Shown piece by piece: positions 51,025 through 51,284 of a stretch of DNA of 64,000 nt. The translations under genes and the position numbers were made by a program. The notes beneath the pieces were generated by a model. That model was not told the origin of the DNA and did not search any database. It saw only the letters and a list, made by a program, of their open reading frames with translations. The stretch lies in assembly GCF_001677475.2 (NCBI RefSeq), contig NZ_CP015229.1. The stretch is one strand, 5' to 3'. The stretch comes from Escherichia coli. GTDB taxonomy: Bacteria > Pseudomonadota > Gammaproteobacteria > Enterobacterales > Enterobacteriaceae. Position 1 is the first letter of the stretch. Each line of letters begins with the position of its first letter.

Positions 51025-51250
51025 GATGAAGCAAGGAGGTGCCCCATGCGTCAGTTTTATCAGCACTATTTTACCGCGACAGCGAAGTTGTGCTGGTTGC
51101 GTTGGTTAAGCGTCCCACAACGATTAACCATGCTTGAAGAGCTGATGCAGTGGGAGGGGAGTCATTCTGACTACTGATTTGCGGACATCATGTGTGACTG
51201 AGTATTGGTGTTAATCGCCACGCCAGCAGTGATTATCTGCTGGCTTTTTT
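51025..51250 (+). ncRNA. sgrS: SgrS small RNA (glucose-phosphate stress)
   Basis: Divergent from sgrR; contains the sgrT ORF, the conserved GUGUGACUGAGUAUUGGUG base-pairing region and a CCAGCAG..CUGCUGG-U-run terminator; ends approximate. Confidence 0.85.
51046..51177 (+). CDS. sgrT: Small protein SgrT encoded within SgrS
   Basis: 43-aa ORF MRQFYQHYFTATAKLCWLRWLSVPQRLTMLEELMQWEGSHSDY inside the sgrS transcript. Confidence 0.85.
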   Translation: MRQFYQHYFTATAKLCWLRWLSVPQRLTMLEELMQWEGSHSDY

Positions 51251-51284
51251 CTTTTTGGCGATTGAGTGCCGGACGGTGTACAAA

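Follow-up and report, generated by a model that had tools for sequence, protein, structure and literature searches.

The sgrS locus in the window, the whole 64-kb stretch of Escherichia coli DNA analyzed here, lacks setA, and this setA-less allele very probably arose by an old deletion of ~1.2 kb with one shared junction, within a divergent block that segregates in E. coli and is shared with other Escherichia. In K-12 MG1655, the annotated gene order is sgrR, sgrT (within sgrS), setA (1,179 bp), and leuD; an earlier note on this DNA had placed a setA of ~1.2 kb at this position in K-12, and this was correct: K-12 does have a gene between sgrS and leuD, and it is setA. In the window, the end of SgrS as delimited by Rfam lies only 33 nt from the leuD stop codon (51252..51284), or 40 nt when counted from the end of the terminator stem, in agreement with the distance of about 34 bp that the note had reported. 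Searches for SetA-like sequence across the 64 kb returned only chance-level matches (best E = 0.47 by tblastn with K-12 SetA and 0.019 by blastn with setA DNA). Together with the 33-nt spacing, these searches bear out the absence of setA from between sgrS and leuD, and a K-12-type sgrS-setA operon, with the setA coding sequence a few tens of base pairs past the sgrS terminator, is not found in the window. Among Escherichia, the window allele is a long-standing and frequent one, and public annotation already shows it.

The SgrS and SgrT sequence elements are all intact in the window, and the sequence downstream of them is noncoding. sgrR, which encodes the transcriptional activator of sgrS (552 aa), lies on the minus strand at 49299..50957, divergent from sgrS. 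Its product scores 1127.7 bits against NCBIfam model NF010149 (cut-off 476), is 99% identical to K-12 SgrR, and is found as the exact protein in 719 blocks of the public collection, making it a widespread allele. sgrS occupies 51025..51251 on the plus strand, where Rfam family RF00534 matches with 228.9 bits (gathering score 37) over model positions 1 to 232, the full model; it is a full-length small RNA gene of the CFT073/O157-type allele, divergent from sgrR and equipped with the conserved base-pairing core and a 3′ intrinsic terminator. Nested within it on the same strand is the sgrT open reading frame (43 aa, 51046..51177), which has an ATG start codon and an AGGAGG ribosome-binding site and translates, up to its stop codon, as MRQFYQHYFTATAKLCWLRWLSVPQRLTMLEELMQWEGSHSDY. 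sgrT is annotated at the same position in RefSeq genomes, and Pfam SgrT is present in near-identical loci. The conserved core GTGTGACTGAGTATTGGTG (51192..51210, plus strand) lies in the 3′-proximal part of sgrS, and this 19-mer has an exact match beside sgrR in 110 species representatives of the Enterobacteriaceae. The conserved 3′-proximal region of SgrS has been equated with the base-pairing region (Horler and Vanderpool 2009, PMC2760817). Judged by this sequence conservation alone, SgrS of the window would be induced by glucose-phosphate stress and would repress ptsG through Hfq. The ribosome-binding region of sgrT (51036..51048) reads AGGAGGTGCCCCATG in the window and AGGGGGTGCCCCATG in K-12 (locus L001, 3337..3349). 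Because the stem-loop that sequesters the ribosome-binding site and limits SgrT translation is specific to K-12 (Horler and Vanderpool, PMC2760817) and this region differs, SgrT may perhaps be translated better from the window allele than from the K-12 allele.

A terminator scan placed the sgrS intrinsic terminator at 51222..51256 on the plus strand, with a stem-loop at 51222..51244 made of eight pairs, six of them G-C, and the T6CT5 tract TTTTTTCTTTTT at 51245..51256. The 56-nt stretch across it (51205..51260) has a minimum free energy of -20.9 kcal/mol (z = -4.56), and the equivalent K-12 stretch has one of -17.8 kcal/mol. The stem closes with a G-C eighth pair in the window and with a G-U pair in K-12; their tails are U6CU5 and U8, respectively.

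On the other side of the junction, leuD (3-isopropylmalate dehydratase small subunit) appears in the open reading frame list at 51285..51890 on the minus strand, convergent with sgrS. Its product scores 341.2 bits against TIGR00171 (cut-off 116.25) and is 97% identical to K-12 LeuD. Open reading frames that match leuC, leuB, and leuA in size adjoin it upstream on the minus strand (51901..55966), the leucine operon leader (Rfam RF00512, 145.8 bits) is at 56010..56159 on the same strand, and the placement of leuABCD matches the annotation of syntenic RefSeq loci. LeuD (51285..51290) ends in AFMR in the window, Citrobacter, and Salmonella and in AFMN in K-12 (L001, 4807..4812), the K-12 haplotype differing as far as the last leuD codon. 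A 28-nt spacer (51257..51284) separates the sgrS T-tract from the leuD stop codon; it is the site of setA in K-12 and in other enterobacterial genera. Local alignment of this spacer with setA and with the setA-leuD intergenic regions of K-12 and seven outgroups revealed no significant similarity; the best alignment was the 7-mer TGCCGGA, which between 53 and 250 of 1,000 shuffles reached or exceeded. The terminator scan found no canonical leu-operon terminator after leuD on the minus strand, where the fold merely re-forms the sgrS hairpin without a following U-tract. Because no canonical intrinsic terminator is detectable there, leu-operon transcripts may overlap the 3′ end of SgrS. The setA-leuD pair of MG1655 is listed as a convergent excludon (PMC12288877), and in setA-less strains one might speculate that the 33-nt convergent layout couples leu-operon read-through to SgrS by antisense overlap of the seed and the terminator.

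The junction is widespread in E. coli. When a 1,001-nt query spanning sgrR, sgrS, and leuD was searched against 5,426 complete E. coli genomes, it aligned as a single piece across a contiguous sgrS-leuD junction in 2,159 of them (~40%), at 96.5 to 97.9% identity, and as two separated pieces in the remaining genomes that matched the locus. In 3,240 complete genomes, K-12 setA DNA had a match of ≥95% identity, which in 3,226 of these was ≥99%. The junction and setA counts sum to exactly the 5,399 genomes matching the locus, and the two states therefore look mutually exclusive. In 2,182 genomes, the best match to setA was a 148-nt stretch, ~73% identical, that is annotated as the paralog setB. 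The earlier note had described a loss "in this lineage," a restriction that the data do not support, since the same junction is present in these 2,159 genomes and in four other Escherichia lineages.

Among five reference strains, K-12 and IAI1 have setA, and CFT073, O157:H7, and IAI39 lack it. We take these strains to belong to phylogroups A (K-12), B1 (IAI1), B2 (CFT073), E (O157:H7), and F (IAI39); the five strains fit a phylogroup split of setA status across A, B1, B2, E, and F, with D outside the sample. The junction itself (…CTGCTGGCTTTTTTCTTTTTGGCGATTGAG…ACAAACTAACGCAT) is identical or near-identical in loci L002, L003 (O157:H7), L011, L024, L056, and L069. In CFT073, an IS200C transposase gene is inserted in the short sgrS-leuD spacer (L120, 4078..4536). 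The setA-less spacer beside the terminator hairpin is thus an insertion site in some B2 strains, and such insertions probably account for part of the ~23 genomes with neither setA nor a contiguous junction. As to the strain itself, the nearest of the 5,426 complete genomes is only 97.5% identical to the window over the 14 kb from 44000 to 58000, and the draft assembly GCA_019141245.1 is 99.97% identical to the window over 7.66 kb; at least for 44000..58000, the lineage of this strain is unrepresented among complete RefSeq genomes.

The direction of the change is indicated by comparison across the Enterobacteriaceae. A scan for the 19-nt SgrS core, with one genome per species, yielded 110 loci, to which K-12 SgrR, SetA, and LeuD were then compared by tblastn; E. 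fergusonii, E. marmotae, E. ruysiae, S. enterica subsp. enterica, and S. bongori fell outside these 110 loci. Wherever a non-Escherichia locus extends far enough downstream, setA directly follows sgrS, starting 84 to 353 nt past the core; the genera and subspecies that keep it include Citrobacter, Salmonella enterica subsp. arizonae and diarizonae, Enterobacter, Klebsiella, Raoultella, Leclercia, Cedecea, Atlantibacter, and Mangrovibacter, among others. Since setA follows sgrS in all of these adequately long loci, the order sgrR, sgrS, setA, leuD is the ancestral one in enterobacteria. In five Escherichia loci, leuD instead starts 95 to 100 nt past the core: those of the window, E. albertii, E. 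whittamii, Escherichia sp. E1V33, and the divergent "E. coli" SCPM-O-B-8794 (91.7% identical to the window). The setA-less loci align collinearly across the junction, with nearly identical sequence, and the setA-less state thus traces to one old deletion within Escherichia. Its presence in E. albertii, E. whittamii, and two other divergent lineages of the genus means that the junction predates the diversification of E. coli. In Trabulsiella odontotermitis strain 01 (L103, core +91..+1153), SetA is matched in two overlapping fragments (residues 1 to 86 and 115 to 392) and setA is ~110 nt shorter than usual, which may reflect a pseudogene or an internal deletion.

The setA-less junction lies in a sharply bounded block of divergence. 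In a sliding-window comparison, K-12 and the window are 98 to 100% identical over most of sgrR, but identity falls, within the final 175 nt of sgrS, to 84% and then to 69% (the last 75 nt), is 83 to 92% over the first 200 nt from the 3′ end of leuD, and is mostly 96 to 100% beyond. The block spans ~400 bp, from the 3′ third of sgrS to the last ~200 bp of leuD. Inside it, identity between the window and E. whittamii is 97% (flanks, 80 to 98%; overall, 91.9%), and K-12 is 99 to 100% identical to Escherichia sp. MOD1-EC7003, whose sgrR flank is only 83 to 97% identical to that of K-12. MOD1-EC7003 carries a setA with 98.7% DNA identity to that of K-12, and its sequence over the 3′ end of sgrS and the initial 374 nt of setA (L110, 13150..13692) matches K-12 at 98.7 to 100% identity. 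From these identities, it looks as if the setA-containing block was recently exchanged between E. coli and the divergent Escherichia lineage represented by MOD1-EC7003, and both forms of the block are common to several species-level lineages of Escherichia. The abrupt limits of the block suggest transfer between lineages through homologous recombination in the genes on either side. From the outgroup genera, the two haplotypes stand at about the same distance (75 to 81% identity over the 3′ 200 bp of leuD and 68 to 85% over the 3′ part of sgrS).

These observations bear on how the window came to lack setA. The absence itself is all that speaks for a recent strain-specific deletion or an assembly artifact, an explanation to which we assign almost no probability: the junction is found as a single piece over 1,001 nt in more than two thousand complete genomes at the identities given above, it recurs in four other species-level lineages of Escherichia, and a draft assembly matches the window at 99.97%. 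We have rejected this candidate on these grounds. A relocation of setA to another part of the genome, with its function retained, is also very unlikely, if a shade less so. The window covers just 64 kb of the genome, which leaves room for a copy elsewhere, but SetA-like sequence is absent from the window, the junction and setA counts add up exactly to the locus-matching genomes, and the 2,182 setA-less genomes match setA only in the setB stretch. These complete genomes look to have no second copy of setA, only setB, and by extension from them, a setA elsewhere in this strain is not expected.

A more serious competitor, which we regard as possible but doubtful, reverses the direction of the most recent change: the ancestor of Escherichia would already have been without setA, and K-12-type strains (K-12 and IAI1) would have regained a setA-bearing block when homologous recombination brought it in from an Escherichia-like donor that had kept setA. 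In favor of such a gain, all sampled Escherichia species except E. coli and MOD1-EC7003 are setA-less with one junction; the setA-containing block crosses lineage boundaries, as indicated by its 99 to 100% identity between K-12 and MOD1-EC7003 against the 83 to 97% seen in sgrR; and setA is uniform in E. coli, with nearly all of its carriers (3,226 of 3,240) at ≥99% identity. However, K-12 SetA is 87 to 89% identical to the Citrobacter and Salmonella proteins, much as SgrR (85 to 87%) and LeuD (88 to 92%) are, and so no donor from outside Escherichia is indicated; the two haplotypes are equally far from the outgroups; and the retrieved loci on which the Escherichia count is based were drawn without E. 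fergusonii, E. marmotae, and E. ruysiae. Moreover, a gain in the K-12-type strains would alter only the timing, not the content of the window. Overall, an old deletion shared across Escherichia remains the reading that we prefer. Within the genus, the K-12-type strains may have kept setA by way of a long-lived polymorphism or may have regained it from a relative that never lost it. With regard to the maintenance of the two alleles, the terminator differences raise an idea that we hold to be improbable, namely, that the sgrS 3′ end is coadapted to each allele, with the G-U/U8 form being leakier and feeding setA and the G-C form being tighter and facing leuD, such that presence and absence of setA would be a long-lived trans-specific Escherichia polymorphism kept by selection rather than drift.

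In mechanistic terms, the old deletion of ~1.2 kb would have taken out the ribosome-binding site and coding sequence of setA and brought the leuD stop codon to a distance of 33 nt from the sgrS terminator. The SgrR-dependent sgrS promoter would then yield only SgrS and SgrT, and any read-through of the terminator would give no SetA and would run antisense into leuD. In such strains, SgrT, base pairing by SgrS, and the remaining targets of SgrR would carry the glucose-phosphate stress response. The earlier note had seen in the loss of setA the removal of one arm of this response. The gene is indeed missing at the locus, but the functional weight of that arm is only modest according to a review (PMC4021124), in which SetA is described as aiding recovery only under certain stress conditions, its activity as an αMG exporter is unsupported, and its role "remains elusive." Being without SetA thus probably carries only a small cost, and setB remains annotated in setA-less genomes.

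Several further features of the window deserve mention. The 3′ ~400 bp of sgrR are only 83 to 90% identical between K-12 and the window and adjoin a 189-aa open reading frame (48500..49069, plus strand) that lies between the thiB TPP riboswitch and sgrR. The product of this reading frame is 95% identical to a protein of strain 2016C-3878 annotated in RefSeq as the type III secretion system effector EspY2, and no match to it was found in NCBIfam. O157:H7 and IAI39 have the EspY2-like reading frame, which K-12, IAI1, and CFT073 lack; together with it, the divergent sgrR 3′ end forms a second indel-linked divergent block. Rfam matches in the window, taken at the gathering threshold, also include the TPP riboswitch upstream of thiB (48160..48259, minus strand; 66.1 bits) and the ES003 small RNA (1820..1872, plus strand; 83.4 bits).

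K-12 is not the reference state at the sgrS-leuD interval, and ~40% of complete E. coli genomes are without the SetA branch of the SgrR regulon. The setA-less set includes the pathogen reference strains CFT073 (B2) and O157:H7 (E), with a different SgrS 3′ end. Since setA is missing and the SgrS 3′ end differs, conclusions drawn in K-12 about terminator read-through and setA cannot be transferred to such strains. The sharply bounded block, which crosses species, illustrates on a small scale how alleles linked to an indel are exchanged in Escherichia and opens no long-standing question.

In its overall layout, the window resembles the sgrR-sgrS-setA locus of K-12, with which it shares the divergent sgrR and sgrS genes, the sgrT reading frame, the base-pairing core, the U-tract terminator, and the convergent leuD boundary. 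K-12 differs in having setA after sgrS, in a 3′ part of sgrS that is 83% identical overall to that of the window, and in its sgrT ribosome-binding site, which is AGGGGG in K-12 and AGGAGG in the window. The setA start codon of K-12 lies 27 bp past the sgrS terminator (PMC9765468), and setA is expressed there from the SgrR-activated promoter by read-through of that terminator (Morita et al. 2015, PMC4509938; PMC9765468), which supports the partial cotranscription of setA with sgrS that the earlier note had mentioned; a citation in PMC4021124 credits the sgrS-setA operon of K-12 to Sun and Vanderpool (2011). A 2009 study had already described the divergent SgrS allele found in CFT073 and O157:H7; it reported K-12 SgrS to be 88% identical to SgrS of CFT073 and O157:H7 Sakai and the latter two to be 99% identical to each other, and its synteny figure marks setA (Horler and Vanderpool 2009, PMC2760817). 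The sgrS 3′ part of O157:H7 is 99% identical to that of the window and is followed by the same setA-less junction, and the C-terminal half of the window SgrT matches protein WP_001248768.1 in sequence. The two loci differ at the sgrT start codon, which is ATG in the window (51046) and ATT in O157:H7 (L003, about 2347), a published mutation (PMC2760817); RefSeq annotates an sgrT coding sequence in O157:H7 despite the ATT. CFT073 differs from the window in its IS200C insertion, from which the window spacer is free. Salmonella, Citrobacter, Enterobacter, and Klebsiella have the same divergent sgrR and sgrS genes and the identical 19-nt core as the window, but unlike the window, they carry setA immediately downstream of sgrS, encoding proteins with 73 to 95% amino acid identity to K-12 SetA.
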